This document shows, in pieces, positions 35,481-64,000 of a stretch of 64,000 nucleotides of DNA. Made by a program: the position numbers and the translations under genes. Under the pieces are notes generated by a model. That model was not told the origin of the DNA and did not search any database. It saw only the letters and a list, made by a program, of their open reading frames with translations. Position 1 is the stretch's first letter. Each line of letters begins with the position of its first letter. This stretch comes from Squalus acanthias (taxonomy: Eukaryota): NCBI GenBank assembly GCA_030390025.1, contig JASTWF010000336.1, positions 310,001 through 374,000 of the forward strand, written 5' to 3'.

Positions 35481-35980
35481 TATTCTTTGGTGTGCGAGGG
35501 TGGGTTTTACTCTATATCTGTCAGTTTCTGGTATGGAAGAGTGGGTGGTCATTCTGTACCTGACAGTCTCTGTTGTGTGACTGTGGCTTTATTCTGTATC
35601 TGTGATGCTCGAGGGGCCGTATGGCCTACTCCTGCTTCTAATTCTTATGTCTCTGGGATGTGAGTGTGGGTTTCTGTCTGTAGTTCTCAGTTTCTGCCAC
35701 GTGTGTGTGTTTTACTCTGTACCTGTCTGTCTCTGGGATGTGAGTGTGGGTTTTTCTTTGTACCAGTCAGTGTCTGGTATGTGAGTGTGGGCTTTATTTT
35801 GTACCGGTTGGTTTGTGGTATGTGTATCTGTCAGTTTCTGTTATATGATTGAGGATTTTACTCTGTCCCTGACAGTCTCTGGTATGTGAGTGTGGATTTT
35901 CCTCTGTCCCTATTCAGAGGGATTTGAGTGTCCTTTTACATGAATTACAGAAAGTTAACATGCAGGTACAACAATCAATT

Positions 35981-36148
35981 AGAACATCAGAACATAAGAA
36001 ATAAGAGCAGGAGTCGGCCATTTGGCCCTTCGAGCCTGCTCCGCCATTCAATAAGATCATGGCTGATCTTCTACCTCATCTCCACTTTCCTGAACTATCC
36101 CCATATCCCTTGATTCCCTTAATATTGATAAGTCTATCGATCTCTGTA
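35981..36148 (-). mobile_element. Short CR1 3' end
   Basis: agaacataagaaataagagcaggagtcggccatttggccc 3' UTR and tail. Confidence 0.8.
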
Positions 36149-37320
36149 CATTGTTTGTGAGAGATAGATTAATTCTGGATCTCTCAGTCTCTGATAGTGT
36201 ATGTGACAGTTAGATTAATTCTGTAAATGACAATCTCTGATACTGTATGTGGGAGTGAGGTTAATTCTATATCTGTCAGTCTCTGGAGCTCTATGTGAGA
36301 TTTAGATTAATGCTGTGTCTCTCAGTCTCCGATACTGTGTCTGAGAGTGAGAATCATTCTGTATGTCTGTCTCTAATACTCTTGTCATTGTGTGATTGAT
36401 TCTATATTTGTCAGTTTCTGGTACTTTATGTGACAGTGAGGTACATTCTCGGTCAGTCTCTGGATTATGTGTGAGAGTGAGATTCATTCTGTACCAGTCA
36501 GTCTTTAATAATCTGTGACAGTGTGGGATTCATTGTGTCTATCATTTTCTGGTACTGTATGTGAGTGTGTGATTCTTCTGGATCAGTCAGTCACAGGTGA
36601 CTGAGTGTGAGTTTATTCTGTATCTGTCAGTCTCTGGTATCCGAGTGTGCGTTTTTCTTTGTACCTGTCAGTGTCTGGTTTGTGAGGATGGGCTTTATTC
36701 TGCACCTTTTGGTTTCTTGTATGTGCGAGTGGTTTGCATTATGTACCTTTTAGTTACTGTTATATGTGTGAGGATTGGAATCAGTACCTGCTAGTTTCTG
36801 GGATATGAGTGTCGGTTTTGCTCTGTATTTGCTATACTCTGGGATGTTTGTGTGGGTTTTAACCTGTAAATGTCATAATCTGGGATGTGTGTGGGTGTTT
36901 GACTCTGTATATGTCATACTCTGGGATGTGAGTTTGTGTTTTACTCTGTATCTGTCATAATCTGGGATGTGTGTGCGGGTTTTACTCTGTATCTGTTAGT
37001 CTTTGGTGTGTGAGGGTAGGATTTACTCTTTATCTGTCATACTCTGGGATGTGAGTGTGGGTTTTTCTCTGTAATTGTCAGTTTCTGCCATGTGTGTGTG
37101 TGTTTTATTCTGTATCTGTCTGTCTCTGGGATGTGAGTGTGGGTTTTTTTTGTATCAGTCAGTGTCTGGTATGTGAGTATGTGCTTTATTTTGTTCCTGT
37201 GGTTTCTGGTATGTGTGAGTGGGTTGCATTATGTATCTGCCAGTATCTGTTGTATGATTGAGGATTTTACTCTGTCCCTGACAGTCTCTGGTATGTGAGT
37301 GTGGGTTTCCCTCTGTCCCT

Positions 37321-38042
37321 ATTCAGAGGGATTTGAGTGTCCTTTTACAAGAATCGCAGGAAGTTAACATGCAGGTACAACAATCAATTGGGAAGGTAAA
37401 TGGTACATTAGCCTTTATGGCAAAGGGGTTGCTGTAAACGAATAAGTAAGTATTGCTGGAATTACATAGGCCTTTGGTTATACCATAACTTGAGTACTTT
37501 GTACATTTTGTTCTCCTTATATAAGGAAGGTTATACTAGGTTTAGAGGGTGCAACAAATGTTCACCAGATTGATTCCTGGGATGAGAGGGCTGTCCTATG
37601 AGGAGAGATTGAGTAAAATGCGCCTATATTGTCTGGAGTTTAGAAGAATGAGAGGTGATCTCATTGAAACATTTCAAATTCTTCGTAGTTTGACAGAGGT
37701 AGATGCTGCGAGGCTGTTTCCCCTGGCAGGAAAGTCTAGAACTAGGGGTCATCGTCCCACAATAAGGCATCGGCCAATTAGGATTGAGATGATGAGAAAT
37801 GTATTCACTCAGTGGGTTGTGAATCTTTGGAATTCTCTACCCCAGAGGGCTGTGGAAGCTCAGTCGATGAGTGTATTCAAGACTGAGATCGATAGAATTT
37901 TGGGCACTAAGGGAATCAAGGGATATCGGGAGAGGGTGGGATATTGGAGTTGTGGTTGAAGTTCAGACATGATCTTAGTGAATGGCGGAGCAGCTTGAGG
38001 GGCTGTTTGACCTATTCCTGCTCCTATTTCTTATTTTCTTAT
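37321..38042 (+). mobile_element. CR1 3' fragment
   Basis: FTRLIPGMRGLSYEERL...VVNLWNSLPQ plus 3' UTR. Confidence 0.88.
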
Positions 38043-38079
38043 AGCTGACAGTTTCAAGGATGTGAATGTGAGTTTCACT

Positions 38080-39138
38080 CTGTATCTGAAAGTCTCTGGT
38101 ATGTGAGTGTGAGTTTCACTCTGTATCTGACAGTCTCTGGTATGTGAGTGTGAGTTTCACTCTGTATCTGACAGTCTCTGGTATGTGAGTGTGAGTTTCA
38201 CTTTGTATCTGAAAGTCTCTGGTATGTGAGTGTGGATTTCGTTCTGTTTCTGTCAGTCTCTGGTATGTGAGTGTGAGTTTCACTCTGTATCTGACAGTCT
38301 CTGGTATGTGAGTGTGAGTTTCACTCTGTATCTGACAGTCTCTGGAATGTGAGTGTGAGTTTCACTCTGTATCTGACAGTCTCTGGAATGTGAGTGTGAG
38401 TTTCACTCTGTATCTGACAGTCTCTGGAATGTCAGTGTGAGTTTCACTCTGTATCTGACAGTCTCTGGAATGTGAGTGTGAGTTTCACTCTGTATCTGAC
38501 AGTCTCTGGAATGTGAGTGTGAGGTTCACTCTGTATCTGACAGTCTCTGGAATGTGAGTGTGAGGTTCACTCTGTATCTGACAGTCTCTGGAATGTGAGT
38601 GTGAGTTTCACTCTGTATCTGACAGTCTCTGGAATGTGAGTGTGAGTTTCACTCTGTATCTGACAGTCTCTGGTATGTGAGTGTTAGTTTCACTCTGTAT
38701 CTGACAGTTTCAAGGATGTGAGTGTGAGTTTCACTCTGTATCTGACAGTCTCTGGTCTGTGAGAGTGAGTTTCACTCTGTATCTGACAGTCTCTGGTATG
38801 TGAGAGTGAGTTTCACTCTGTATCTGACAGTCTCTGGAATGTTAGTGTGAGTTTCACTCTGTATCTGACAGTCTCTGGTATGTGAGTGTGAGTTTCACTC
38901 TATATCTGACAGTCTCTGGAATGTGAGTGTGAGTTTCACTCTGTATCTGACAGTCTCTGGAATGTGAGTGTGAGTTTCACTCTGTATCTGACAGTCTCTG
39001 GAATGTGAGTGTGGGTTTCACTCTGTATCTGACAGTCTCTGGTATGTGAGTGTGAGTTTCACTCTGTATCTGTTAGTCTCTGGAATGATTTTGGGTTTCA
39101 CTCTGTATCTGACAGTCTCTGGAATGTGAGTGTGAGCT
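38080..39138. repeat. Homogeneous 41-bp tandem array, about 25 units
   Basis: (gtgagtgtgagtttcactctgtatctgacagtctctgg[t/a]at)n with few variants. Confidence 0.95.
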
Positions 39139-40827
39139 TGTAGAATTCGCAATATATCGCGATTTTATTAATGAGGAGAAAACACATAGTTTCGTTCAAA
39201 CAGCTTTTATTTCAGCAGAATGCTGTCAGGTTTCAAAGTGGACACAAGCAGCTTGTAAAATGGCCGCCGCACCTCGTGGCAGAACATTCTAGACTTTTCG
39301 ACAGGCAGACAAGATGGCGTTCCAATAAACATTTGTGCAAGATCGATTAAGATTCAGCACATTGAAGATAATACACGAGACATCTTGGGTTTGCAGTATA
39401 CACATAGATACTGAAATCGGTCTCCCGGGTACGAATAAAGGCTATTGTACCAAGTAATCAAGAGCCCATCCAAAGACATTAATATGTAAAATCCCAACGA
39501 CTCTACGATGAGAGAGCCGTTAGCGGGTAGTTACAGAAAACACTTGGAGGCCCCAAAACCCCTCCAGGGAGAACACCGACCGATTAAACAATGGGAGAAA
39601 TATTAACAGGTACTCAGACATTTACGAGTAGCCCCGAAACCCATTAAAAACGGAAATCACCTATACAAGACATTTGAGCGCCAAACCCTAACAAAAGGAA
39701 AAGACATTAAGGTTGGGCGGGAAACAGAAGATTTTGTACTATAATTACAAGCTCCAACCGTCCATCTCTCTCTTATCCTCTTATCTTGCTGGTGTTCATC
39801 CTCGTGGCTGCTCCTGTGTTCTTGACTCGCCGTCTTGTTCCTGTTTGCCTCGTGTCTCTTTTTAAAAGACTGTTGAACTTTGTGATCCGCTCGGATCTAC
39901 CTCGTGTCGTGTCACGAAGACCTGTGTTGGTAACCGGCATCGGAACCAACGGCCCGAGAAGAGATGAGATGAGATGAGATGAGAAGAGACGAAGACCATA
40001 CTTATCGCCACGGTCAGTAAGCCCCGACCGCGCCTGTAGGTCGAATTGACATTTTTCCTTGCCAGGAAGACTTCTTTGAACTTTAAAGAACGGACACCGG
40101 AAGATTCTTTTCGTAAGTGTTGACTGGAATGTGAAACCCACCAAAACAGATCTTCATGACGGACACCGGGAGATTATTCTCTTAAGTGTTGACTGGTACG
40201 TGAAACCCACAAACACAGATCTTCATAACAACAGACGTTCCAGCCGCTAGCCGGAGCAGAAGCAAGTAAACAAGTGGGGCCAGGAGACCCCCTGATCGAC
40301 ACGTGGGTGCTGCGGTGAAAAACATCCGATCAGCTATTCGGAATTTCTCTGAGTTATCACGAATGGTGAGCATGAGTCTCGAATCCTACGAATCTAGTTT
40401 AGAATAGGTATTGATAGGGGAGGGTTTAAGTATTAAGGATAATTGTAATGTGTGCCCCCATTTACGGTGTGTCGTTCGTTCCTCGTTTCCCTGAAATCAG
40501 TTACATAACTGCGTGTAAGATTGTACTGTCATTAATCTGTGCTTATGACATGTATTTCGTAATCTTAAATATTATGCAATAAAGATTTTCCATTTCGTAC
40601 CATTCAACCGAGTCTACCTGAGTTTCATCTCCATTACTGCTCTCGCATCTAAGTCCAGTGTCTAGAACCGTAAGGGCGAGTGATTCGAACCACTCACAGG
40701 TGTGTCTAGTGCTCCCAGACTGGCTGGAGACCAGAACAGGCAACAAGGCCTAAACCCGCACTGACATACAGGCTGCACAGAGCCACGTGAATCTCACAGG
40801 CTGAGGGACACGTTCAAAACCCTTACA
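39139..40827 (+). mobile_element. Solo LTR, 1689 bp (ERV or Gypsy lineage)
   Basis: Starts TGTA, ends TACA, flanked by a 4-bp duplication AGCT (39135-39138, 40828-40831) inside a satellite unit. TATAAT at ~39740 and AATAAA at 40578 suggest + orientation. No recognisable coding sequence. Confidence 0.8.
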
Positions 40828-42120
40828 AGCTTTATGCTGTACCTGTCAACTTCTGTTGTCAGAGTAAGAGTTTTATTCAATGCCTGACAGTTTCTGAGAG
40901 GGGAGTGTGGAATTTAGTCTGCATCTGTAAGTCACTTGTTTGTGAGTAATGGCATTAATCTGTATATGTATCATTCAGAGTCTGGAATGAGAGTGTGGGC
41001 TTTACTCTGTACCTGTCAGTCTCTGGGATTTGATTCTGTATCTGTCAGCTTCTGGTGTGCGAGTGTGGATTTCACTCTGTAACTTTCTATCTCTTGTATG
41101 TGAGTGTGGTACTATCTCTGTAAATGTCAGTTCCTAGTATGTGACTGGGGTTTTATTTTGTACCTGTCAGTTTCTGTTATATGAGTAAAGGTTTTAATCA
41201 GTCGCTGCCTGTTTCTGGTAGGGGAGTGTGGATTTCAGTCTCTATCTGCCAGTCTATGCTTGTGAGTGTGCGTTTCACCCTGTACCTGTCACTCTCTGAG
41301 ATGTGAGTGCGAGTTTCACTCTGTATCTGTCAGTCTCTTTTAAGTGAGTGTTGATTTTATCTATAGCTGTCAACCTGGTATGTTAGTGTGGGTTTTACTC
41401 TAGCTATCGGTCACTCGGATGTGTGTGTGGATTTTACTCTAACTCAGTTTCTAGTATATGGATGTGGAGTTTTGTCTGTACCTGTCAGTTTCTGGTGTGA
41501 GTGTGGATTTTACTTTGTACCTGTCTGTCTCTGCTTTGTGAGTGTGGGATTGATTCTGTATCTGTTAGACTGGTAATGTAGGTGAGTGTGAGATTCATTA
41601 TGTAATTTACAGTCTCTTGTACTGCACTATTCTTGCTCTGTGTGATTGTTGGATTCCATTCCTTCTCCACCTTGTGTAGGCCGATGCTAGTTTGAGACTA
41701 CCTGCGACTGTCTCAGGAGGAGATTTGGTTCAGTCCATTACCTCCGATTCTCTGGTCTTGTCTGTTAGTTGTTGGGTTTGACTGTCCGTGTACAGCCAGC
41801 AGTGTGGATTCACACCGTATCAGTGTCTATCTGTTTGTGTGTGTGAGTAAGGGAGTGAAAATAGATCTGCCTGCCAGTGCGAGATGTTTGGACTTGGAAA
41901 CAACAGAGCTGTGATTGGCTCCTGTCCCTGAATCTGGGGATCAGACACTGTGAGGAGCGCCGGCCTCAGAGTGTTTAACACTGACTGAGCTGAGAAACTC
42001 CAACTAACCCCGAGAATCGGCAGCACAGGTCGAGCGGAGAGGAAAACCTGTCCCGGGAACTGTAAATCTGGGAGCAGATTGTGCTGTGAATGAGCAGAGT
42101 GAACATTGTGTCAGCGAGAG

Positions 42121-42660: not shown

Positions 42661-43347
42661 ATGACTGAGACTGCAGCCGCCGAAACGGCTCCTCCTGCCG
42701 CCGTCGCTCAAACCAAGTCTCCCAGCAAGAAGAAGAAGGTGACTCCCCGCTCCAAGCCAGCCGGTCCCACGTTGGGCGAGCAGATCCTCAAGGTTGTGGC
42801 GAGTGGCAGCGGTCGCAAGGGGATGTCGCTGGCCGGGATAAAGAAGGCTCTGGCTGCCAACGGCGTCGATGTGCAGAAGTTCCGGTCCCAGATCATTTTA
42901 AGTATCAAGAGGAAAGTGGGAAACGGCTCCCTGGAGCAGACCAAGGGCACGGGCGCCGCGGGCTCCTTCAGGCTCGCTAAGAAGGAATCCCAATCGAAAG
43001 AGGGCAAGAAAGTGAGGAAACCGGCAGCCAAGAAATCTGCAGTAAAGAAACCGGCAGCCAAGAAATCTGCAGTAAAGAAACCAGCAGCCAAGAAATCTCC
43101 AGCCAAGAAACCAGCAGCCAAGAAATCTCCAGCCAAGAAAACGATCGCCAAGAAAACGATCGCCAAGAAGGCACCAACATCAAAAAAGTCAGCGAAAGTG
43201 GCGGCTGGGAAGAAGGTTGCGGCGAAGAAGCCCAAGAGCCCCAAGAAGGCCACAGGCGGAATGGTGAAGGTGGCCAAGAAGGTGGAAAAACCCAAGGCCA
43301 AGCCCAAATCAGCAAAGTCTCAGAAAGCAGCGACCAAAAGAAAGTAA
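42661..43347 (+). CDS. H1: Histone H1 (copy 2)
   Basis: 228 aa paralog of 15270 with a normal TAA stop. Stem-loop at 43379-43394 plus ACCCA and AAAAGAGCTG. Confidence 0.96.
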   Translation: MTETAAAETAPPAAVAQTKSPSKKKKVTPRSKPAGPTLGEQILKVVASGSGRKGMSLAGIKKALAANGVDVQKFRSQIILSIKRKVGNGSLEQTKGTGAAGSFRLAKKESQSKEGKKVRKPAAKKSAVKKPAAKKSAVKKPAAKKSPAKKPAAKKSPAKKTIAKKTIAKKAPTSKKSAKVAAGKKVAAKKPKSPKKATGGMVKVAKKVEKPKAKPKSAKSQKAATKRK

Positions 43348-43557
43348 AAAGGACAACTGATAAACATCTGAACCCAAAGGCTCTTTTCAGAGCCACCCAA
43401 GTCTTTCCAAAAAGAGCTGATCGCGGAATCAAATGATCCATGTCCCGGGTCCGGGCTCAGACTCCCGATTGAAATCATTTCAAATGAACCCCGGCTCCAT
43501 GGTGACTCGCTGACTTTCGCTGCGCCCACCCCTTCCCCAGTGTCTGCAATAAAACAA

Positions 43558-46500
43558 ATGCGAGAAGTCGCACAACACCAGGTTATCAAGAGGCGGGAGG
43601 CCCGGGTCGGGCGATTGGAGAAAGAAGTGCTCGACCTGGAGTCCCGTCTCGGTCAAGTCGTCGAGGACCCGGCCCTGCGGAAGGAGTACGAAGAGAAGAA
43701 GGGCGCGCTGAAGGACCTGCAGCTGGTCGGGTCCCGAGGCGCGTACGTGAGGTCGCGGATCCAGTTCCTGCGGGACCTGGACCGCGGCTCCCCCTTCTTC
43801 TACTCGCTGGAAAAAAGACGGGGGGTCCGTAAGCAGCTCTTGGGGCTGCTGGCCGACGACGGATCTCTGGTCTCGGATCCGGAGGGCATCAGCGCGGAGG
43901 CCCGGGCCTATTACGGGGCTCTGTTCTCTTCGGATCCGTCCAGCGAGGATGCGCGCAGAGTTTTGTGGGAGGACCTGCCGAAGGTCGGCCCGGAGGGCGC
44001 CGAGAATTTAGAAGCCCCGCTAAGCCTGGCGGAGCTGACCGGCGCCCTGCGCCAGCTCTCGAGGGGCAAGTCCCCGGGGCTGGACGGGCTGACCGTGGAG
44101 TTCCACAGGGCGTTCTGGGACGTCTTGGGGGACGACTACGCGCGGGTCCTGGGGGAAAGTCTGGCGACCGGGGAGATGCCCCTCTCTTGGCGCAGGGCGG
44201 TCATCGTCCTGCTGCCCAAGAAGGGCGATCTCCGCCTACTTAAGAACTGGCGCCCGGTCTCCCTCCTCAGCACGGACTACAAAATTTTCGCCAGGGCTAT
44301 GTCTGCTCGCCTTGGCACCGTGCTGGCCCGCATGATCCACCCCGACCAGTCCTACACGGTCCCGGGCTGGAGTATCCACGATAACATCCATCTGGTCCGG
44401 GACCTGGTCCACCATTCCCAGAGGGCTGGTCTGTCGGTCGCCTTCCTTTCCCTGGATCAGGAGAAGGCGTTCGACAGGGTGGATCACGAGTATCTTTTCG
44501 GGACTCTGCGCGCATTCGGGTTCGGGACGCATTTCGTCGCCCGGATCCGACTTCTGTACGCCGCCGCGGAGTGTCTGATTAAAGTTAACGGGTCTTTGAC
44601 GGCGCCCCTTCGCTTCGGGAGGGGGGTGCGTCAGGGATGCCCCATGTCCGGTCAGTTATACGCCGTTTGCGTGGAGCCTTTCCTGCGCCTCTTGCGGAAG
44701 AGGTTGACGGGACTGGCTCTGCAAGGGCCGGGCGTGGAGGTGGTCCTCTCGGCTTACGCCGATGACGTGCTCCTCGCGGTCACGGATCCCGTCGACTTGC
44801 GGAGGATGCGAGAATGCCAGCAGATTTACTCGGACGCATCCTCCGCCAAGATCAACTGGGAGAAATGTTCTGGACTCCTGGTGGGCCCATGGCGGGTGGA
44901 CTCCCTGCCGGAGGAGTTCGGGCCTTTCGCCTGGAGCACCACGCACCTCCTCTACCTGGGAGTCTACCTCAGCCCGGCCGAGGACGCCTGGCCGGCGAAC
45001 TGGCAAGAGCTGGAGGCCAAAGTCACCGCTCGCCTAGGACGCTGGACAGGACTGCTCCGAGTGTTGTCCTACAGGGGTCGAGCGCTGGTCATAAACCAGC
45101 TGGTGGCCGCCATGTTGTGGTACCGGTTGGTCACTTTGATCCCTCCCCCTGCGTTTGTCGCCAAGATGCAGAAGAAGCTCGTCGACTTCTTCTGGGACAA
45201 AAGGAAGCACTGGGTCTCTGCCGCGGTTTTGAGTCTCCCGCTTAGGGAGGGCGGTCAGGCGCTGGTGTGCCTTCGCACCCAGGCGGCGACTTTCCGTCTT
45301 CAGACGCTGCAGAGATACCTGTACGTGGAGAATCCTCCTAGGTGGCGTGCGCTGGCGACGTATTTCTTCCGCCAGCTGCACGGCCTCAATTACGACACGC
45401 AGCTCCTGTTTGTGAGAGTGGGTGGCACGCGTGCCAGCCTGCGGGAGCTGCCTGTCTTCTACCAGGAACTGCTATGGGTTTGGAACAGCGTCGCCTCCGA
45501 GCGCAGTTCTCCCCCGTCAGGAGCGGCGGCCGTCCTTCGGGAGCCGCTGTTCAGGAATCCGCACCTCCACGACCGCGGGTTCGGCTGGCTGGCGGAGGGC
45601 AGGGCTGTGCCCGGTAAGGTGACCAGAGTCGGGGACCTGCTCGATGGCGGAGGAGCGGGCTGGATGGCGCCGGAGGAGTTGGCGAGGCGCATGTCTTGGG
45701 TCAACGTCCGGCTCGCGGTCAAAGCCATCGAGTCGCTAAAAGTGGCACTGGGCCCCGTCTCCACTAGGTGTGTCGAGGAGGCTCAAGCACGTGGGGCGAT
45801 CCCGTCCGAACTGACCCCCGTTCGGACGGAATTCCTTATCGGCGCCCGGCCCCGAATCCTCCCTCGGGAGCCGCCGCCTCACCACTTGAGCCTTCTCGGA
45901 GAAATGCCCTCCGTGCCCTTTCAATCCGCACGGAGGCGTTTCCTGTACGGGCTGCTCCTGCACACTCTCCACTTTGCCATCTTCGTCTGCCGTCCGGACA
46001 CGCCTTGGCGTACCATCCTGCCGTCCGGCGGAGGCGAAGGTCCCCATTGGAAGGCTCTCTACACGGGAGTCTTCCCTTGTTCTATTGGGGACTTGGCCTG
46101 GAGGGTGTTGCACGGAGCAGTCCCGTGCAATAGGATTTTAAGTAGGTTTACGGACTCCCAGGCTGCTTGCCATTTCTGCGGCCTGGAGGAGTCCGTCTAT
46201 CACAATTATATTGAGTGTGAGAGGTTGCAGCCCCTCTTTCATTATTTGAAGGGGCTGCTCCTCAATTTCTGGTTGCACTTCAGCCCCACGCTCCTGATCT
46301 ACGGTCACCCGGTGCGGAGGGGAGCGGGTAGGTCGGAGGACCTCCTCGTAGGACTGCTCCTGGGCCTGGCCAAGAAAGCCATTAATTGGTCCAGGCAGCG
46401 GGCGGTCGAGGGGGTCGTTCGGCCCGATTGCCTGCCTCTCTTCCGCGGCCATGTTCGCGCCCGGGTGGCCCTGGAGATGGAGCACGCGGTGTCCGCCGGC

Positions 46501-46581
46501 ATGCTTGAGTTTTTCCGCGACCGGTGGGCGCCGCGGGGACTGGAGTGCATCGTCACCCCGGACTTTCAAATTTTAATTTGA
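43558..46581 (+). CDS. Endonuclease-less Tx1 ORF2 (RT + zinc knuckle), open from an ATG in flanking sequence, 1007 aa
   Basis: The ATG at 43558 is in frame with the uninterrupted RT ORF. Expression is unknown. Confidence 0.55.
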   Translation: MREVAQHQVIKRREARVGRLEKEVLDLESRLGQVVEDPALRKEYEEKKGALKDLQLVGSRGAYVRSRIQFLRDLDRGSPFFYSLEKRRGVRKQLLGLLADDGSLVSDPEGISAEARAYYGALFSSDPSSEDARRVLWEDLPKVGPEGAENLEAPLSLAELTGALRQLSRGKSPGLDGLTVEFHRAFWDVLGDDYARVLGESLATGEMPLSWRRAVIVLLPKKGDLRLLKNWRPVSLLSTDYKIFARAMSARLGTVLARMIHPDQSYTVPGWSIHDNIHLVRDLVHHSQRAGLSVAFLSLDQEKAFDRVDHEYLFGTLRAFGFGTHFVARIRLLYAAAECLIKVNGSLTAPLRFGRGVRQGCPMSGQLYAVCVEPFLRLLRKRLTGLALQGPGVEVVLSAYADDVLLAVTDPVDLRRMRECQQIYSDASSAKINWEKCSGLLVGPWRVDSLPEEFGPFAWSTTHLLYLGVYLSPAEDAWPANWQELEAKVTARLGRWTGLLRVLSYRGRALVINQLVAAMLWYRLVTLIPPPAFVAKMQKKLVDFFWDKRKHWVSAAVLSLPLREGGQALVCLRTQAATFRLQTLQRYLYVENPPRWRALATYFFRQLHGLNYDTQLLFVRVGGTRASLRELPVFYQELLWVWNSVASERSSPPSGAAAVLREPLFRNPHLHDRGFGWLAEGRAVPGKVTRVGDLLDGGGAGWMAPEELARRMSWVNVRLAVKAIESLKVALGPVSTRCVEEAQARGAIPSELTPVRTEFLIGARPRILPREPPPHHLSLLGEMPSVPFQSARRRFLYGLLLHTLHFAIFVCRPDTPWRTILPSGGGEGPHWKALYTGVFPCSIGDLAWRVLHGAVPCNRILSRFTDSQAACHFCGLEESVYHNYIECERLQPLFHYLKGLLLNFWLHFSPTLLIYGHPVRRGAGRSEDLLVGLLLGLAKKAINWSRQRAVEGVVRPDCLPLFRGHVRARVALEMEHAVSAGMLEFFRDRWAPRGLECIVTPDFQILI

Positions 46582-46650
46582 TTTATTAAGTTTCATTTCA
46601 AGTTTTAATTGATTTACAGTAAATTTGCGTTCTGTCAAACCAAAAAGATC
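43587..46650 (+). mobile_element. Tx1-clade (L1 group) non-LTR retrotransposon, 5'-truncated, copy 1
   Basis: Motifs KSPGLDGL, KNWRPVSLL, DQEKAFDRV, GVRQGCPMS, YADD, EGG, and C-terminal CHFC..ESVYH...C zinc knuckle. No APE domain. GC- and CpG-rich. Confidence 0.92.
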
Positions 46651-46663
46651 AACACCAGGTTAT

Positions 46664-49600
46664 CAAGAGGCGGGAGGCCCGGGTCGGGCGATTGGAGAAA
46701 GAAGTGCTCGACCTGGAGTCCCGTCTCGGTCAAGTCGTCGAGGACCCGGCCCTGCGGAAGGAGTACGAAGAGAAGAAGGGCGCGCTGAAGGACCTGCAGC
46801 TGGTCGGGTCCCGAGGCGCGTACGTGAGGTCGCGGATCCAGTTCCTGCGGGACCTGGACCGCGGCTCCCCCTTCTTCTACTCGCTGGAAAAAAGACGGGG
46901 GGTCCGTAAGCAGCTCTTGGGGCTGCTGGCCGACGACGGATCTCTGGTCTCGGATCCGGAGGGCATCAGCGCGGAGGCCCGGGCCTATTACGGGGCTCTG
47001 TTCTCTTCGGATCCGTCCAGCGAGGATGCGCGCAGAGTTTTGTGGGAGGACCTGCCGAAGGTCGGCCCGGAGGGCGCCGAGAATTTAGAAGCTCCGCTAA
47101 GCCTGGCGGAGCTGACCGGCGCCCTGCGCCAGCTCTCGAGGGGCAAGTCCCCGGGGCTGGACGGGCTGACCGTGGAGTTCCACAGGGCGTTCTGGGACGT
47201 CTTGGGGGACGACTACGCGCGGGTCCTGGGGGAAAGTCTGGCGACCGGGGAGATGCCCCTCTCTTGGCGCAGGGCGGTCATCGTCCTGCTGCCCAAGAAG
47301 GGCGATCTCCGCCTACTTAAGAACTGGCGCCCGGTCTCCCTCCTCAGCACGGACTACAAAATTTTCGCCAGGGCTATGTCTGCTCGCCTTGGCACCGTGC
47401 TGGCCCGCATGATCCACCCCGACCAGTCCTACACGGTCCCGGGCCGGAGCATCCACGATAACATCCATCTGGTCCGGGACCTGGTCCACCATTCCCAGAG
47501 GGCTGGTCTGTCGGTCGCCTTCCTTTCCCTGGATCAGGAGAAGGCGTTCGACAGGGTGGATCACGAGTATCTTTTCGGGACTCTGCGCGCATTCGGGTTC
47601 GGGACGCATTTCGTCGCCCGGATCCGACTTCTGTACGCCGCCGCGGAGTGTCTGATTAAAGTTAACGGGTCTTTGACGCGCCCCTTCGCTTCGGGAGGGG
47701 GGTGCGTCAGGGATGCCCCATGTCCGGTCAGTTATACGCCGTTTGCGTGGAGCCTTTCCTGCGCCTCTTGCGGAAGAGGTTGACGGGACTGGCTCTGCAA
47801 GGGCCGGGCGTGGAGGTGGTCCTCTCGGCTTACGCCGATGACGTGCTCCTCGCGGTCACGGATCCCGTCGACTTGCGGAGGATGCGAGAATGCCAGCAGA
47901 TTTACTCGGACGCATCCTCCGCCAAGATCAACTGGGAGAAATGTTCTGGACTCCTGGTGGGCCCATGGCGGGTGGACTCCCTGCCGGAGGAGTTCGGGCC
48001 TTTCGCCTGGAGCACCACGCACCTCCTCTACCTGGGAGTCTACCTCAGCCCGGCCGAGGACGCCTGGCCGGCGAACTGGCAAGAGCTGGAGGCCAAAGTC
48101 ACCGCTCGCCTAGGGCGCTGGACAGGACTGCTCCGAGTGTTGTCCTACAGGGGTCGAGCGCTGGTCATAAACCAGCTGGTGGCCGCCATGTTGTGGTACC
48201 GGTTGGTCACTTTGATCCCTCCCCCTGCGTTTGTCGCCAAGATCCAGAAGAAGCTCGTCGACTTCTTCTGGGACAAAAGGAAGCACTGGGTCTCTGCCGC
48301 GGTTTTGAGTCTCCCGCTTAGGGAGGGCGGTCAGGCGCTGGTGTGCCTTCGCACCCAGGCGGCGACTTTCCGTCTTCAGACGCTGCAGAGATACCTGTAC
48401 GTGGAGAATCCTCCTAGGTGGCGTGCGCTGGCGACGTATTTCTTCCGCCAGCTGCACGGCCTCAATTACGACACGCAGCTCCTGTTTGTGAGAGTGGGTG
48501 GCACGCGTGCCAGCCTGCGGGAGCTGCCTGTCTTCTACCAGGAACTGCTATGGGTTTGGAACAGCGTCGCCTCCGAGCGCAGTTCTCCCCCGTCAGGAGC
48601 GGCGGCCGTCCTTCGGGAGCCGCTGTTCAGGAATCCGCACCTCCACGACCGCGGGTTCGGCTGGCTGGCGGAGGGCAGGGCTGTGCCCGGTAAGGTGACC
48701 AGAGTCGGGGACCTGCTCGATGGCGGAGGAGCGGGCTGGATGGCGCCGGAGGAGTTGGCGAGGCGCATGTCCTGGGTCAACGTCCGGCTCGCGGTCAAAG
48801 CCATCGAGTCGCTAAAAGTGGCACTGGGCCCCGTCTCCACTAGGTGTGTCGAGGAGGCTCAAGCACGTGGGGCGATCCCGTCCGAACTGACCCCCGTTCG
48901 GACGGAATTCCTTATCGGCGCCCGGCCCCGAATCCTCGCTCGGGAGCCGCCGCCTCACCACTTGAGCCTTCTCGGAGAAATGCCCTCCGTGCCCTTTCAA
49001 TCCGCACGGAGGCGTTTCCTGTACGGGCTGCTCCTGCACACTCTCCACTTTGCCATCTTCGTCTGCCGTCCGGACACGCCTTGGCGTACCATCCTGCCGT
49101 CCGGCGGAGGCGAAGGTCCCCATTGGAAGGCTCTCTACGCGGGAGTCTTCCCTTGTTCTATTGGGGACTTGGCCTGGAGGGTGTTGCACGGAGCAGTCCC
49201 GTGCAATAGGATTTTAAGTAGGTTTACGGACTCCCAGGCTGCTTGCCATTTTTGCGGCCTGGAGGAGTCCGTCTATCACATTTATGTTGAATGTGAGAGG
49301 TTGCAGCCCCTCTTTCATTATTTGAAGGGGCTGCTCCTCAATTTCTGGTTGCACTTCAGCCCCACGCTCCTGATCTACGGTCACCCGGTGCGGAGGGGAG
49401 CGGGTAGGTCGGAGGACCTCCTCGTAGGACTGCTCCTGGGCCTGGCCAAGAAAGCCATTAATTGGTCCAGGCAGCGGGCGGTCGAGGGGGTCGTTCGGCC
49501 CGATTGCCTGCCTCTCTTCCGCGGCCATGTTCGCGCCCGGGTGGCCCTGGAGATGGAGCACGCGGTGTCCACCGGCACGCTTGAGTTTTTCCGCGACCGG

Positions 49601-49722
49601 TGGGCGCCGCGGGGACTGGAGTGCATCGTCACCCCGGACTTTCAAATTTTAATTTGATTTATTAAGTTTCATTTCAAGTTTTAATTGATTTACAGTAAAT
49701 TTGGGTTCAACCAAAAAAGATG
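46664..49722 (+). mobile_element. Tx1-clade element copy 2, frameshifted
   Basis: Near-identical to copy 1 with the same 5' end. A 1-bp deletion near 47678 splits the ORF (46692-47783, 47702-49657). Confidence 0.92.
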
Positions 49723-49735
49723 AACACCAGGTTAT

Positions 49736-52700
49736 CAAGAGGCGGGAGGCCCGGGTCGGGCGATTGGAGAAAGAAGTGCTCGACCTGGAGTCCCGTCTCG
49801 GTCAAGTCGTCGAGGACCCGGCCCTGCGGAAGGAGTACGAAGAGAAGAAGGGCGCGCTGAAGGACCTGCAGCTGGTCGGGTCCTGAGGCGCGTACGTGAG
49901 GTCGCGGATCCAGTTCCTGCGGGACCTGGACCGCGGCTCCCCCTTCTTCTACTCGCTGGAAAAAAGACGGGGGGTCCGTAAGCAGCTCTTGGGGCTGCTG
50001 GCCGACGACGGATCTCTGGTCTCGGATCCGGAGGGCATCAGCGCGGAGGCCCGGGCCTATTACGGGGCTCTGTTCTCTTCGGATCCGTCCAGCGAGGATG
50101 CGCGCAGAGTTTTGTGGCAGGACCTGCCGAAGGTCGGCCCGGAGGGCGCCGAGAATTTAGAAGCTCCGCTAAGCCTGGCGGAGCTGACCGGCGCCCTGCG
50201 CCAGCTCTCGAGGGGCAAGTCCCCGGGGCTGGACGGGCTGACCGTGGAGTTCCACAGGGCGTTCTGGGACGTCTTGGGGGACGACTACGCGCGGGTCCTG
50301 GGGGAAAGTCTGGCGACCGGGGAGATGCCCCTCTCTTGGCGCAGGGCGGTCATCGTCCTGCTGCCCAAGAAGGGCGATCTCCGCCTACTTAAGAACTGGC
50401 GCCCGGTCTCCCTCCTCAGCACGGACTACAAAATTTTCACCAGGGCTATGTCTGCTCGCCTTGGCACCGTGCTGGCCCGCATGATCCACCCCGACCAGTC
50501 CTACACGGTCCCGGGCCGGAGTATCCACGATAACATCCATCTGGTCCGGGATCTGGTCCACCATTCCCAGAGGGCTGGTCTGTCGGTCGCCTTCCTTTCC
50601 CTAGATCAGGAGAAGGCGTTCGACAGGGTGGATCACGAGTATCTTTTCGGGACTCTGCGCGCATTCGGGTTCGGGACGCATTTCGTCGCCCGGATCCGAC
50701 TTCTGTACGCCGCCGCGGAGTGTCTGATTAAAGTTAAAGGGTCTTTGACGGCGCCCCTTCGCTTCGGGAGGGGGGTGCGTCAGGGATGCCCCATGTCCGG
50801 TCAGTTATTCGCCGTTTGCGTGCAGCCTTTCCTGCGCCTCTTGCGGAAGAGGTTGACGGGACTGGCTCTGCAAGGGCCGGGCGTGGAGGTGGTCCTCTCG
50901 GCTTACGCCGATGACGTGCTCCTCGCGGTCACGGATCCCGTCGACTTGCGGAGGATGCGAGAATGCCAGCAGATTTACTCGGACGCATCCTCCGCCAAGA
51001 TCAACTGGGAGAAATGTTCTGGACTCCTGGTGGGCCCATGGCAGGTGGACTCCCTGCCGGAGGAGTTCGGGCCTTTCGCCTGGAGCACCACGCACCTCCT
51101 CTACCTGGGAGTCTACCTCAGCCCGGCCGAGGACGCCTGGCCGGTGAACTGGTAAGAGCTGGAGGCCAAAGTCACCGCTCGCCTAGGGCGCTGGACAGGA
51201 CTGCTCCGAGTGTTGTCCTACAGGGGTCGAGCGCTGGTCATAAACCAGCTGGTGGCCGCCATGTTGTGGTACCGGTTGGTCACTTTGATCCCTCCCCCTG
51301 CGTTTGTCGCCAAGATGCAGAAGAAGCTCGTCGACTTCTTCTGGGACAAAAGGAAGCACTGGGTCTCTGCCGCGGTTTTGAGTCTCCCGCTTAGGGAGGG
51401 CGGTCAGGCGCTGGTGTGCCTTCGCACCCAGGCGGCGACTTTCCGTCTTCAGACGCTGCAGAGATACCTGTACGTAGAGAATCCTCCTAGGTGGCGTGCG
51501 CTGGCGACGTATTTCTTCCGCCAGCTGCACGGCCTCAATTACGACACGCAGCTCCTGTTTGTGAGAGTGGGTGGCACGCGTGCCAGCCTGCGGGAGCTGC
51601 CTGTCTTCTACCAGGAACTGCTATGGGTTTGGAACAGCGTCGCCTCCGAGCGCAGTTCTCCCCCGTCAGGAGCGGCGGCCGTCCTTCGGGAGCCGCTGTT
51701 CAGGAATCCGCACCTCCACGACCGCGGGTTCGGCTGGCTTGCGGAGGGCAGGGCTGTGCCCGGTAAGGTGACCAGAGTCGGGGACCTGCTCGATGGCGGA
51801 GGAGCGGGCTGGATGGCGCCGGAGGAGTTGGCGAGGCGCATGTCCTGGGTCAACGTCCGGCTCGCGGTCAAAGCCATCGAGTCGCTAAAAGTGGCACTGG
51901 GCCCCGTCTCCACTAGGTGTGTCGAGGAGGCTCAAGCACGTGGGGCGATCCCGTCCGAACTGACCCCCGTTCGGACGGAATTCCTTATCGGCGCCCGGCC
52001 CCGAATCCTCCCTCGGGAGCCGCCGCCTCACCACTTGAGCCTTCTCGGAGAAATGCCCTCCGTGCCCTTTCAATCCGCACGGAGGCGTTTCCTGTACGGG
52101 CTGCTCCTGCACACTCTCCACTTTGCCATCTTCGTCTGCCGTCCGGACACGCCTTGGCGTACCATCCTGCCGTCCGGCGGAGGCGAAGGTCCCCATTGGA
52201 AGGCTCTCTACACGGGAGTCTTCCCTTGTTCTATTGGGGACTTGGCCTGGAGGGTGTTGCACGGAGCAGTCCCGTGCAATAGGATTTTAAGTAGGTTTAC
52301 GGACTCCCAGGCTGCTTGCCATTTCTGCGGCCTGGAGGAGTCCGTCTATCACATTTATGTTGAATGTGAGAGGTTGCAGCCCCTCTTTCATTATTTGAAG
52401 GGGCTGCTCCTCAATTTCTGGTTGCATTTCAGCCCCACGCTCCTGATCTACGGTCACCCGGTGCGGAGGGGAGCGGGTAGGTCGGAGGACCTCCTCGTAG
52501 GACTGCTCCTGGGCCTGGCCAAGAAAGCCATTAATTGGTCCAGGCAGCGGGCGGTCGAGGGGGTCGTTCGGCCCGATTGCCTGCCTCTCTTCCGCGGCCA
52601 TGTTCGCGCCCGGGTGGCCCTGGAGATGGAGCACGCGGTGTCCGCCGGCACGCTTGAGTTTTTCCGCGACCGGTGGGCGCCGCGGGGGCTGGAGTGCATC

Positions 52701-52799
52701 GTCACCCCGGACTTTCAAATTTTAATTTGATTTATTAAGTTTCATTTAAAGTTTTAATTGATTTACAGTAAATTTGGGTTCTGTCAAACCAAAAAGATG
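49736..52799 (+). mobile_element. Tx1-clade element copy 3, two nonsense mutations
   Basis: Same 5' end. TGA at 49884 and TAA at 51153. Confidence 0.92.
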
Positions 52800-53542
52800 A
52801 ACACCAGGTTATAGTCCAACAGCTTTATTTGAAATCAAATCTTTCGGAGTGCTGCTCCTTCGTCACATTTGTCCACCCCAGTCCAACACCGGCATCTCCA
52901 CATCATGTAATAAAACACACAGAGAATGGGATGTCCGGGCCGGGCCTACCTCTTACTGGGGCCGGGGGGTTTTCGGCTCCAGTCTCAGTTCATGGTCATT
53001 TTCAGTTCAGAGGTTCAGGATGAGAGTCTCTGTGAGACGGTGACACTGGCGGAGATACCCCGCGTCACAACTCAAACCCCAATACATGAGATTCTCCAAA
53101 TCACCTGGAATAAGGTGATTGTAAACTGCTGAACCCGTCTGTGAGGGCAGTGTGGGGAGATGGAATAAGGTCAGAGATTGACATGGAAGGAGACGGGTTG
53201 ACTTGTGATAGAAGGGACAGTATATCGGCGGGAATATTACTGATTGTTAATTGTAACAGGAACTTATTTAAAAGATTCTATTGTCGATAAACGGTTTGAA
53301 ATTGGCGGTTGGAGAAAGCTGGAGGTGTAGCTGGAAGATCAGAGGCCGCTCTCTGCTCTGTCTGTCACTCTTGAAACTGTCTCCTCCCCTCCCGCTCTCT
53401 CTGTTTAATCTCCCACTCTGTCTCCTCCCCTCCCCGCCTCTCTCACTCTGCGCTTTCTCAGTCAGGTCGGAGTCGGCTGTATATAAGAGCAGCCAGAAGC
53501 AGTCAGTTTCTCATTCAGCAGAAGTTTGAGTGAAGAATCATC

Positions 53543-53752
53543 ATGACTGGACGAGATAAAGGAGGCAAAGGACTGGGCAATGGCGGAGCCAAGCGCCACC
53601 GTGAAGTGCTCCGTGACAACATCCAGGGCATCACCAAACCAGCCATCCGCCGCCTGGCTCGCCGTGGCGGTGTCAAGCGGATCTCAGGGCTGATCTACGA
53701 GGAGACCATGGATGAACGGCAGGCCCGCACTCTCTATGGATTCGGCGGATGA
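53543..53752 (+). pseudogene. Histone H4 pseudogene
   Basis: Two internal deletions (102 bp total) remove most of the histone fold. Also G4D, K12N and K20E. Stem-loop retained at ~53788-53803. Confidence 0.93.
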
Positions 53753-55107: not shown

Positions 55108-56071
55108 AAATTATAACAGAAAACGCTGGAAACACTCAGCAGGCCAGGCAGCATCCGTGGAGAGTGAAACAGAGTTAACGTTTCAGGTCGAAGACCTTTC
55201 GTCAGAACTGGAAATAGCAGGAAATGAATTAGATTTAAAGCAAGTATAAAGCTGGGAAAAGGAGGAGGGGATGAAAGAACAAAAGGAGAGATTAAGAGAC
55301 ATTCAGAGATAATCAAGGCAAGAGGAGGTGTTGATGTGACAGGTTGAGGCTGGATGAAGTGTGAAATGCACTGGCAGAATGAAGGACAGCTGCCAGCTTC
55401 TGGGAGGAAAAATAAAGGGGGGGGGCAAACAAAAGGCTGGATGAAAAAATAAAATATAAATGTGATGGGGGCCGGGGTTATGATCTGAAATTGTTGAACT
55501 CTATGTTGAGTCCAGAGGGCTGTAGAGTGCCTAAATGAAAGATGAGGTGCTGTTCCTCGAGCTTACGCTGAGCTTCCGTGGAACAGTGTAATAGGCCGAG
55601 GACGGTGAGGTCAGAGTGGGAGTGGAGCGGAGAATTAAAGTGACAGGCCACCGGGAGCTCGGGGTCCCCCTTATGGACTGAATGGAGGTGTTCCACAAAG
55701 CGGTCACCCAATCTGCATTTGGTCTCCCCAATGTAGAAGAGACCACATTGTGAGCAGCGAATACAGTACACTAAATTGCAAGAAGTACAAGTAAATCGCT
55801 GTTTCACCTGGAAGGGGTGTTTGGGGCCCTGGACAGTGGGAAGAGCGGAGGTATAAGGGCATGTGTTGCATCTCCTGCGCTTGCACAGGAAGGTGCCGGG
55901 CGAAGGGGAAGGGGTGCTGGGGTGGTAGAGGAGTGGACTAGGGTTTTGCGGAGGGAGCGGTCCCTGCGGAATGCTGAAATGGGAGGTGAGGGGAAGATGC
56001 GTTTGGTGGTGGGATCACGCTGGAGATGGCGGAGGATGATCCGTTGAATCTGGAGGCTAGTGGGGTGAAAG
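55108..56071 (-). mobile_element. Penelope-like element 3' fragment with GIY-YIG endonuclease
   Basis: 55478-55807 encodes FTCTSCNLVYCIRCSQCGLFYIGET...RFVEH...HF...E...GLN. Inserted at AAAGTGAG|GTTTCACAG relative to the empty site at ~29852-29868. Confidence 0.9.
55173..55210 (-). ncRNA. Minimal type I hammerhead ribozyme in the Penelope terminal repeat
   Basis: CAGTT-CTGACGA-A-AGGTC-TTC-GACCT-GAAA-CGTT-AACT: core boxes CUGANGA and GAAA, 5-bp stem II, palindromic ACGU stem III, AGUU/AACU stem I. Confidence 0.75.
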
Positions 56072-60437: not shown

Positions 60438-60810
60438 CTGTGGCTCACTCGCCTCTGAGTCAGAAGGTTGTGGTTCAAGTCCCACTCCAGGGACCGTAAC
60501 ACAAAGCTAGGCTGACACTCCAGAGCTGTGCTGAGGGAGTGCTGCACTGTCGGACGTGCTGTCTTTCGGACCAAGGCCCCGTCTGCTCTTTCAGGTGTAC
60601 GTAAAAGATCCCATGGCACTATTCCGGTGTCCCGGCCAATATTTCTCCCTTAACCAATATAACAAAAACAGATGATCCGGTCATTATCACATTGCTGTTT
60701 GTGGGAGCTTGCTGTGCGCAAATTGGCTGCCGCATCTCCCACATTACAACAGTGACTCCACTCAAAAAAATAATACTTAATTGGCTGTAAAGCGCTTTGA
60801 GATGTCCAGC
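60438..60810 (+). mobile_element. DeuSINE (SacSINE1-like), inverted duplicate of 23795-24145
   Basis: Same tRNA-like head and Deu-domain motifs. Confidence 0.75.
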
Positions 60811-61383
60811 AGCAGGATTGTATAACAAAATAATTGCCTCTGCCATTTCTAAATTACAATTGACAAAAAACTTTTTTCAGCTCCCATAGAATGAAAAAGG
60901 ACTTTAAACTAATAAATCTGTTCTCAGTCAGAAACAGTAGTAAAAATGGTAGTTAGATACACACTAAAGGGAGAAGAGCAGAGTTCAGGTCACAAACAGT
61001 GCTGTGGATACTCCAGGGGAAGGTAATACTAAAATAATTACTGTATTTAAAGCAGCAGTTACAAATAAGAAACGTGTTAAATCAAACGGTCTGATAAAGG
61101 CAGCATCAGGGCAGAAGGACAGGTGAGGGTCTCTTTTGTTATTGGTCGTTCTCCTGCATTGTAACTACCCAGAATGGGAGTTCTTACAGAGACCAGAACC
61201 GGGACAGTTTGAACACTCTGTCCCTCTTTTCTTTTCACACAGAAGGACTCCCAGTTCTGGCTTCACTCCCGCAGCAGCGCCTGTGCAAAGTATCGATCGA
61301 TAATCTGTGAAACCTCACTTTTACAAAGATTGCGCTGGAATGTGTCCCGTTACAGAATCAATGGGGATCGATTACCGCCTGTT

Positions 61384-64000
61384 ACATAGAAACATAGAAA
61401 AATAGGAGCAGGAGTAGGTCATTCGGCCCTTCGAGCCTGCTCCACCATTCAATATGATCATGGCTGATCCTTTATCTCAATACCATATTCCCGCTCTCTC
61501 CCCATACCCCTTGATGCCTTTTGTGTTTAGAAATCTATCTATCTCCTTCTTAAATATATTCAGTGACTTGGCCTCCACAGCCTTCTGTGGAAGAGAATTC
61601 CACAGGTTCACCACCCTCTGAGTGAAGAAATTTCTCCTCATCTCAGTCCTAAATGTCCTACCCCATATCCTGAGACTGTGACCCCTCATACTAGGCCCCC
61701 CAGCCAGGAGAAACATCCTCCCTGCATCCAGTCTGTCTAGCCCTGTCAGACTTTTATACGTTTCAATGAGATCCCCTCTCATTCTTCTAAACTCCAGTGA
61801 ATACAGGCCTAGTCGACCCAATCTCTCCTCATACGACAGTCCTGCCATCCCAGGAATCAGTCTGGTGAACCTTCGCTGCACTCCCTCTAAGGCAAGTATA
61901 TCCTTTCTTAGGTAAGGAGACCAAAACTGCACACAGTACTCCAGGTGTGGTCTCATCAAGGCCCTGTACAACTGTAGTAAGACATCCTTGCTCCTGTACT
62001 CAAATCCTCTTTCAATGAAGGCCAACATACCATTTGCCTTCCTAACTGCTTCCTGCACCTGCATGTTTGCTTTCAGTGACTGTTGTACAGGACACCCAGA
62101 TCCCTCTGTACATCAGCATTTCCCAATCTATCACCATTTAAGTAATACTCTACCTTTCTGTTTTTCCGACCAAAGTGGATAACTTCACATTCATCCACGT
62201 TATACTGCATCTGCCATGTATTTGCCCACTCACTCAACTTGTCTAAATCGCCTTGAAGCCTCTTTGCATCCTCCTCACAACTCACAATCCCACCTAGTTG
62301 CGTGTCATCAGCAAACTTGGAAATATTACATTTGGTTCCCTCATCCAAATCATTGATATATATGGTGAATAGTTGGGACCCAAACACTGATCCCTGCGGT
62401 ACCCCACTAGTCAACACCTGACAACCCAAAAAAGAGCCATTTATTCCTACTCTCTGTTTCCTGTCTGTTAACCAATTTTCCATTCAATCCCCCAATCCCA
62501 TATGCTTTAATTTTGCACACTAACATCTTATGTGGAACTTTATCAAAGGCCTTCTGAAAATCCAAATACACAGCATCCACTGGTTCTCCCTTATCTATTC
62601 TAGCAGTTACATCCTCAAAAAACTCCAGTAGGTTTGTCAAACACGATTTCCCTTTCATAAATCCATGTTGACTTTGTCTAATCCCGTTGATATTTTCTAA
62701 GTGTCCTGTTATCACATCCTTTATAATAAACTCTAGCATTTACCCTGCTGATGATGTTAGGCAAACCGATATGTAGTTCCCTGTTTTCTCTCTCCCTCCT
62801 TTTTTAAATAGTGGGGTTACATTTGCCACCCTCCAATCTGCAGGAACTGTTCAATAATCTATAGAATTTTCTACATGACAACCAATGCCTCCACTATTTC
62901 CATGGCTAGCTCTTTTAGTACTCTGGGATGCAGATTATCAGTCATTGGGGATTTATCAGCTTTCAGTCCCATTAATTTCTCCAGCACTATTTTTTTACTA
63001 ATAATAATTTCCTTTAATTCCTCCTTCTCACTAGACCCTTGGTTCCCTAGCATTTCTGGGAAGTTATTTGTGTCCTCTTCTGTGAAGACAGAACCAAAGT
63101 ATTTGTTTAATTGCTCAGCCATTTCCTTGTTCCCCATTAAAAATTATCTCGTTTCTGACTGTAAGGGACCTACATTTGTCTTCACTAATCATTTTCCTTT
63201 TACATACTTGTAGAAGCTTTTACAATCCGCTTTTATGTTCCTTGCAAGTTTACTCTCATATTCTATTTTTCCCCACTTAATCAATCTATTGGTCCTTTTT
63301 TGCTGAACTCTAAACAGCTCCCACTCCTCAGGCTTGCTACTTTTTCTGGTAACTTTAAATGTCTCCTCTTTGGATCTAATACTATCCTTAATTTATTTTG
63401 CTGGCCATGGTTGGGCCGCTTTTACTTTTGTGTTTTTGCGCCAGAAAGGAATGTAAAACTGTTGCAATTTGTGCTTTTGTCCTTAAATCTTAGCCATTGC
63501 CTATCCATGTATTTTAATGAAGCTCCCCAATCTATCAGAGCCAACTCACTCCTCATACCATCGTAGTTTCCTTTGTTTAGATTTAGGACACTAGTTTCAG
63601 ATTAGACTTCTTCACTTTCCATTTTAATGAAGAATTCTATCATGTTAAGGTCACTCTTCCCTATAGGATCCCACAGAACAATATTATTAATTAACACCTT
63701 CTCATTGCACAATACCCAATCTAGGATAACCTGTTCCCTAGTTGGCTTACTGGTCTAAAAAAAATCTCGTACACACTCCACAGTATTATTGCTAATTTGG
63801 TTTGACCAGTCTATATGTAGATTAAAGTCACCCATGACTACTGTAGTACCCTTGTTACATGCATCTCTAATTTCCTGTTTGATGCCATCGTCTACATTAC
63901 CACTACTGTTTGGAGGCCTATAGACAACTCCCACCAATGCTTTCTGCTCCTTGGTGCTAATTAGCCCCACCCAGACTGATTGTACATCTTGATTTTCTGA
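61384..64000 (-). mobile_element. Decayed CR1, inverted duplicate of 20689-23216
   Basis: Near-identical broken ORFs (62073-62483 = 22117-22527; 62407-62739 ~ 21861-22193). Confidence 0.93.

Follow-up and report, generated by a model that had tools for sequence, protein, structure and literature searches.

A Tx1-lineage retrotransposon of Squalus acanthias with a preference for a site in the terminal repeat of a Penelope element

The window analysed here is a stretch of 64,000 nucleotides from Squalus acanthias (assembly GCA_030390025.1, contig JASTWF010000336.1, positions 310,001 to 374,000 of the forward strand). It carries an array of three truncated copies of a Tx1-clade long interspersed element (LINE) within a remnant of a Penelope element. 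The family to which these copies belong very nearly certainly prefers one site in the Penelope repeat. We give a probability of roughly 0.7 to the reading that this site is set jointly by an endonuclease nick and by pairing of the RNA end, which has no poly(A), with the target, as judged from the junctions compared below.

Site preference across the genome

An earlier reading of the window made from its letters alone (the sequence-only reading) had suggested Penelope terminal repeats as the target of the family, and this was borne out genome-wide. The proposed search with the 3' end for the flanks of other copies returned a shared flank: of the 30 sequences most similar to the terminal 300 bp of the element (window included), 29 continue with AACACCAGG, one with a mismatch. 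A 27-nt motif of the 3' untranslated region (UTR) has 915 exact matches in the 3.7-Gb genome; in the first 30 of these loci in genome order, AACACC was present in 29 and AACACCAGG, within one mismatch, in 25. For one 3' variant, 268 of 278 ends abut AACACC directly, a count which covers that variant and the first six flank bases and includes junctions internal to arrays. When distinct flanks of array ends or solo copies were collected, 47 of 56 were the full Penelope site. The other nine begin AACA and share this core alone; targeting is leaky to this extent. It weighs against the preference as measured that these terminal flanks are a non-random sample, with one exception fetched deliberately.

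The exact 35-mer site occurs 65,792 times in the genome. CACAACACC 9-mers number 156,512, and 105,812 of them (68%) are of the Penelope type, so that site abundance explains much of the preference; the observed 84% (47/56) still exceeds the 68% expected from CACAACACC alone (binomial p = 0.005). The per-base chance for comparison with 47/56 is 1.4e-5. More than 20% of flanks in one repeat, the enrichment by which Kojima recognises a target-specific Tx1 family, are found here.

Visible 5' ends carry the upstream half of the target and a 13-14-bp duplication, at varied truncation points and in varied Penelope subfamilies. Since the upstream half and an own duplication are found at different truncation points, 3' transduction and hitch-hiking are excluded. 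Off-target insertions keep the core alone and duplicate local sequence.

Copies at the site lie antisense to the Penelope repeat; a strict rule of this kind was considered and rejected, because the copy at locus L182 sits at a second AACACC, in the Penelope tail, in sense orientation. On the reverse strand of locus L178, two off-target insertions lie in a short satellite containing CACAACACC.

The array in the histone spacer

The array is located in a histone cluster, in the spacer that separates an H1 gene from a deleted H4 copy. Three 5'-truncated units bearing a reverse transcriptase (RT), each with ~3.06 kb of the second open reading frame (ORF2), start at the identical base and differ pairwise at 23-30 positions as aligned. 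AACACCAGGTTAT separates them, at 43574, 46651, 49723 and 52800, with no further occurrence in the window. Its four copies bound three units and confirm the 13-bp target duplication of the sequence-only reading, which was also right that the short 3' ends lack a poly(A) run. The features are, in window coordinates:

43546..43556, +: left target duplication of the Penelope remnant, 11 bp; single copy in the empty paralogs
43557..43573, -: end of the Penelope pseudo-long terminal repeat (pseudo-LTR), upstream half of the Tx1 target, ending ...GTCGCAC at the inferred nick
43574..43586, +: 13-bp Tx1 target duplication, copy 1
43587..46650, +: Tx1 unit 1, 5'-truncated ORF2 with RT and zf-RVT and without endonuclease; frame open to a stop at 46581, short 3' UTR, 4 private changes
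46651..46663, +: 13-bp target duplication, copy 2
46664..49722, +: Tx1 unit 2, 5' breakpoint as unit 1, one frameshift, a different 3' tag, 4 private changes
49723..49735, +: 13-bp target duplication, copy 3
49736..52799, +: Tx1 unit 3, 5' breakpoint as units 1 and 2, two premature stops, 11 private or near-private changes; apparently the oldest
52800..52812, +: 13-bp target duplication, copy 4
52813..52865, -: remaining Penelope pseudo-LTR fragment; its minimal hammerhead core, at 52841-52865, is broken
52866..52906, +: 41-bp Penelope tail, inverted; what is left of the other arm in an inverted pair
52907..52917, +: right target duplication of the Penelope remnant

The array had been placed inside a ~125-bp insert with its own flanking duplication. 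Such an insert is present; its size was refined to 117 bp plus an 11-bp duplication, that is, a 128-bp Penelope remnant, flanked by GCAATAAAACA (43546-43556) and GTAATAAAACA (52907-52917), which differ by one mismatch. The final 41 bp are the Penelope tail in opposite orientation. As had been claimed, the insert is missing from the paralogous spacer at ~16125, and 17 of 19 other paralogous spacers fetched are empty as well. The remaining two (L231 and L237) carry a Penelope fragment at the identical AATAAAA. The fragment in L237 is independent and without Tx1, and L231 has the left junction of the window, an empty left arm and a 6.7-kb Tx1 in the opposite arm. From these empty and filled states it follows that the Penelope fragment entered the spacer before Tx1; for the window we infer the order Penelope fragment, then three Tx1 copies, with unit 3 the earliest. 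The insertion point marked by the sequence-only reading corresponds to the top-strand end of the duplication, and the priming nick is placed 13 bp upstream of it, at GCAC^AACACC.

The AATAAAA after the H1 gene has received at least two independent Penelope insertions (L231, L237, window 43546) and is a possible hot spot.

Affiliation of the Tx1 family

Full-length copies, whose recovery and placement in a tree had been proposed, are ~7.17 kb long and encode an ORF1 with a zinc knuckle and an ORF2 of 1299 aa with an apurinic/apyrimidinic endonuclease (APE), RT and zinc finger. The endonuclease is missing from the window copies by truncation. Pfam matches of the copy at L048 were Exo_endo_phos, RVT_1 and zf-RVT, the last below its curated cut-off; zf-CCHC in ORF1 (E = 5e-4) scored 20.4 bits, slightly below the cut-off of 20.8. 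ORF2 is 50% identical to Tx1L of Xenopus laevis (UniRef YTX2_XENLA) over 1299 aa and scores 1388 bits against it, in comparison to 284 bits against the far more distant human L1 ORF2. In an RT tree of 43 rows chosen from 120 listed matches, rooted at the midpoint without an L1 outgroup and without a CR1 sequence, which was removed by the filter, it falls into a clade (100/100) that holds Tx1L as well as sequences from turtle, ray and sturgeon records. Among the matches listed, the named ORF2 fragments closest to it were from Heterodontus (75%) and Hemitrygon (69%). By these comparisons, the element is a member of the Tx1L lineage. The family is young, with copies ~99% identical and intact ORFs.

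At least three types of 5' head were seen in the full-length copies L031-L064: a long target copy with an inverted half-hammerhead (type 1), a target copy ending at a palindrome (type 2), and a plain 13-14-bp duplication followed by a 5' UTR start common with subfamily B (type 3, likely ancestral). The inverted half-hammerhead was rejected as a requirement, one of these head types being without any of it. Older Tx1 3' fragments, 74-83% identical and with other flanks, lie in the flank of array C2a (L146) and at L181; the genome may hold further Tx1 target lineages. In sequencing runs X1-X18, from seven organism codes, 66-76% of the words of the element were present, and run contigs of unconfirmed kind are ~99% identical to it, one crossing into the same target. 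This may be due to close relatives, mislabelling or transfer. In one raw-read run, of which 6% was read, the target was present and the element was not found.

The host Penelope element and its predicted hammerhead

The link to the host was given by the end of a Penelope ORF downstream of one Tx1 copy. Each of 20 Penelope ORF loci fetched has a hammerhead core and then the site, 230-310 nt past the stop; 18 are empty and two are filled at the same base (the locus of the query and an independent one). Three complete Penelope copies have a 919-codon frame (RVT_1, E = 2e-8) between two repeats, and the Tx1 site in the 5' repeat directly precedes the Penelope ATG. A Tx1 in the 5' pseudo-LTR would sit just before the start codon and likely disable that copy. 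A GIY-YIG-like motif at the C-terminus (VVYLIRC...WYIGET) was read by eye, and GIY-YIG had no Pfam match in either Penelope examined. The linker CX4CxxC is typical of Neptune/Nematis, for which a CX2-5CxxC linker is given in the part of PMC8557442 used here. Judging from these motifs, the host is an endonuclease-bearing (EN+) Penelope, probably of Neptune/Nematis type.

Hammerhead core and stems fold in L002 and L014, with z only -1.7 and -0.3. No hammerhead match was obtained with Rfam, whose models, as far as the search shows, do not include the minimal hammerheads of Penelope-like elements (PLEs). The host ribozyme is predicted to fit the minimal, dimer-dependent type described for PLEs in passages of PMC4209133. 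A hammerhead-like core had been reported for the window at 52841-52865 of the reverse strand; the position is right, though in this copy C3 is replaced by G, the loop-III palindrome is disrupted, and no hammerhead fold is obtained. The hammerhead itself was rejected as the target, because the nick is 39 nt past the cut that we predict after AAGCUU, and 11 of the 47 on-target flanks are without an intact hammerhead half.

Two end points around the tail were seen for Penelope insertions, and they match the two reverse-transcription starts reported for lizard Penelope in the passages of PMC11167929 used. The Tx1 site is situated 13 nt inside the first end point, within the last ~30 nt, so that nearly every Penelope fragment should carry it. 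Penelope supplies more than 100,000 landing sites, most of them dispensable.

Sister subfamilies and the setting of the site

In the mechanism proposed here, ORF2 would nick the bottom strand at CAC^AACACC, and read-through RNA from a copy already in the site, ending AACACC..., would pair with the freed strand and prime reverse transcription. The top strand would be cut 13-14 bp downstream. Upstream half and duplication would then rebuild the site, such that each later copy would enter on the 5' side of an earlier one; its cDNA would be finished by pairing with the 5' end of that earlier copy, whereby all units would inherit one breakpoint. Annealing of read-through RNA to the target is described for R1Bm and SART1Bm in passages of PMC7265360.

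A divergent 3' end at L192 led to subfamily B, which together with subfamily C is compared below with the Penelope-targeting family (A):

L244-L248, L281, L275 (e.g. G000:C9:88893000-88902999): full-length copies of subfamilies B and C, in the 5' UTR of a CR1/L2-type LINE

Among 30 loci fetched, 25 have the B tail; all 25 have a flank starting with AAG, and the A site is used by none. Seven lie in one repeat, and the frame downstream of this repeat has a GDSL esterase domain; we take it to be a CR1/L2-type ORF1. The B site in the CR1/L2-type 5' UTR has 402 exact copies, and all six full-length B copies fetched end there. The C tail has 24 exact matches, 23 of which begin CAG, and the host repeat of B, in a CAG variant, also harbours the single full-length C copy.

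ORF2 of A and B is 98.5% identical in DNA, and the B/C endonuclease is 99% identical to that of A. Comparing 47 A with 5 B copies, the majority residue differs at 18 positions of ORF2, of which only two, both fixed, are in the endonuclease (R113Q, R167Q). Q113/Q167 are common to B- and C-tail copies where readable, including the full-length C copy. In the 28 B and 17 C junctions compared, a few of whose duplications were mis-assigned by the script, the flank match is near-total at +1 to +3 and becomes partial at +4 and +5; upstream, apart from a T bias in B, there is hardly any constraint. Pairing of read-through RNA with the nicked strand would be expected to leave such a fading match. Full-length copies with the B and C tails have flanks that correspond to the sites of these tail variants, and this points to pairing of RNA and target.

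Whether the lineage was retargeted mainly by RNA, the 3' flank of a source copy becoming the landing site of its progeny, is a further proposal from these comparisons that we rate at somewhat under even odds. One lucky insertion into a Penelope tail may, as an equally tentative part of it, have switched the lineage from the rare CR1/L2-type 5' UTR (402 sites) to more than 100,000 sites with a nearly unchanged enzyme. Three observations weigh against a role of the RNA in setting the site, also in the joint form. Residue 113 aligns to N118 of L1, beside the catalytic YAP motif. In off-target A sites, C is found at -1 in 8/9 whatever the last base of the tail; pairing of the RNA offers no explanation for this. 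Changes private to the full-length C copy include one in the hairpin loop and a stop codon. Because of the retained C and the position of residue 113, the enzyme likely contributes and may carry much of the change.

The extreme form of this contribution, in which the endonuclease alone sets Penelope targeting, R113/R167 or other ORF2 differences having re-tuned the nick while the RNA end is irrelevant, we consider unlikely. The Tx1L endonuclease alone nicks its own target almost exclusively in vitro, according to the part of PMC1950540 used, the position of residue 113 varies among homologs, and the upstream C of the A sites would fit as well. B and C tails, however, share Q113/Q167, yet differ in the +1 base just as the flanks of the full-length copies do, and A and B do not differ in the majority sequence of the hairpin loop that reads the target. 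Joint setting of the site by nick and RNA end is preferred.

Growth of the arrays

Arrays likely grow by re-insertion in which the 5' end of the neighbour is copied, since units share the 5' breakpoint yet carry different family variants; re-insertion is also proposed for R1 arrays in the part of PMC2718515 used. At unit position 99, a private base is common to the three window units (37/37 other copies differ there), yet these units differ among each other at 11 family-polymorphic sites and each has its own 3' tag. From unit 1 to unit 3, the private changes amount to 4, 4 and 11. In all 13 truncated arrays the units share the 5' start (two arrays have internal deletions in the upstream unit), and 12 of the 13 have at least two 3' tags. 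In one array (L177:3268-6917), at least 11 units, each ~333 bp long, have a common breakpoint and several 3' tags, and one 5' variant is confined to the five upstream units. For adjacent full-length units, the first 100 nt are identical in 44% of 16 pairs, in comparison to 0% of between-array pairs, and their bodies often match other loci best.

Some observations are at odds with growth by re-insertion. A private base at 2477 is present in units 1 and 3 and missing from unit 2, which requires local conversion or a repeated CpG change; adjacent bodies are somewhat closer than average; the units C10_1 and C10_3 differ by one base, hence some arrays include plain duplication; and the age polarity holds in four of seven arrays, is uninformative in two and slightly reversed in one. 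With targeting taken as real, the window units could be tandem duplicates, from unequal crossing-over with later conversion, or an assembly expansion, and the common breakpoint and the shared private bases at 99 and 2477 would suit this. The 11 polymorphic differences and three 3' tags, with the same picture in 12 of 13 truncated arrays, make this improbable.

An origin without any targeting, with a Tx1-in-Penelope composite amplified by Penelope retrotransposition or segmental duplication, or with the flank being the Tx1 3' end (transduction), would profit from the young and very abundant Penelope and from the up to ~57 nt of target-like sequence at the 5' end of full-length copies, but is contradicted already by the junction tables and hardly credible given the independent loci with different truncation points, own 13-14-bp duplications and upstream target half, the flanks from different Penelope subfamilies, the off-target insertions with the core alone and local duplications, and the paralog L231 with one arm empty and the other filled.

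Other features of the window

The genes on both sides of the array are:

42661..43347, +: histone H1 gene upstream of the spacer, presumed to be H1 from its translation
53543..53752, +: histone H4 copy downstream of the array, with an internal in-frame deletion, 69 codons

Satellite arrays of 41 and 46 bp occupy 31000-41600, with a homogeneous 41-bp block at 38045-39136. On the reverse strand, a 988-codon frame at 11346-14312 is a CR1/L2-type ORF2, and 55160-56014 is a 3' fragment of a second Penelope family, with another hammerhead-like motif near 55200 and without the Tx1 site. An inverted duplication of 2.25 kb (98%) was found at 21638-23891 and 60709-62962.

Significance and comparison with known systems

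Target switching of site-specific LINEs is usually approached with families too diverged for comparison. A and B have different targets, two fixed endonuclease differences and intact copies, so that the parts of enzyme and RNA could be separated by swaps. Should the site be set by the RNA end, elements of this kind would be candidate tools for site-directed gene insertion and, if retargeting by RNA is true, a naturally programmable, flank-guided LINE. Penelope repeats join the mobile elements used as safe landing sites.

By described target, reference sequences being absent from the tree, the family is unlike Keno (U2), Kibi/Koshi (microsatellites) and Tx1-Mar. The targets of Dewa (tRNA) and Mutsu (5S) are likewise different from a Penelope pseudo-LTR. 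A Tx1 with a Penelope target was not found in the literature searched, Repbase, Dfam and subscription papers being beyond this search; the word 'Penelope' occurs 0 times in the main text of PMC4494074, whose supplements, outside this count, may list more targets, and Tx1 is unmentioned in the passages covered of a 2026 retrozyme preprint. The idea that the family parasitises another mobile element is supported; such Tx1 families were already known, with piggyBac, Mariner, LTR and Harbinger elements as targets in the part of PMC4494074 used, and what is new is the host element, Penelope.

Tx1L of Xenopus laevis also inserts into a mobile element, the non-autonomous piggyBac Tx1D (PMC4494074, in the same part), which is a DNA transposon, whereas the shark element uses a Penelope repeat with more than 100,000 sites. 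The crocodilian Tx1-Mar, Tx1-8_Crp, Tx1-4_AMi and Tx1-9_AMi resemble the shark family in preferring transposons (Mariner-N4, LTR elements, Harbinger) and in tandem insertions around the duplication; according to the passages of Kojima 2015 (PMC4494074) used, they are old (85-87% to consensus), in contrast to the shark family with its ~99% identical copies and intact ORFs.

R1 of Drosophila and R1Bm/SART1Bm are, like the shark element, APE-type site-specific LINEs with ~14-bp duplications, and in the passages covered of PMC2718515 and PMC7265360 they have tandem arrays via re-insertion at the 5' duplication and target sequence in the RNA ends that anneals to the target, as is proposed for the shark element. 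A common 5' truncation across units from different templates was not found in those passages. R1-type elements belong to another clade and have host genes or telomeres as targets. The shark host agrees with Neptune/Nematis-type PLEs, as described in parts of PMC8557442 and PMC4209133, in the GIY-YIG-like C-terminus, CX4CxxC linker, pseudo-LTRs, inverted pairs, ~40-bp tail and predicted minimal hammerhead with palindromic loop, and differs from those described in being the landing site of a LINE.

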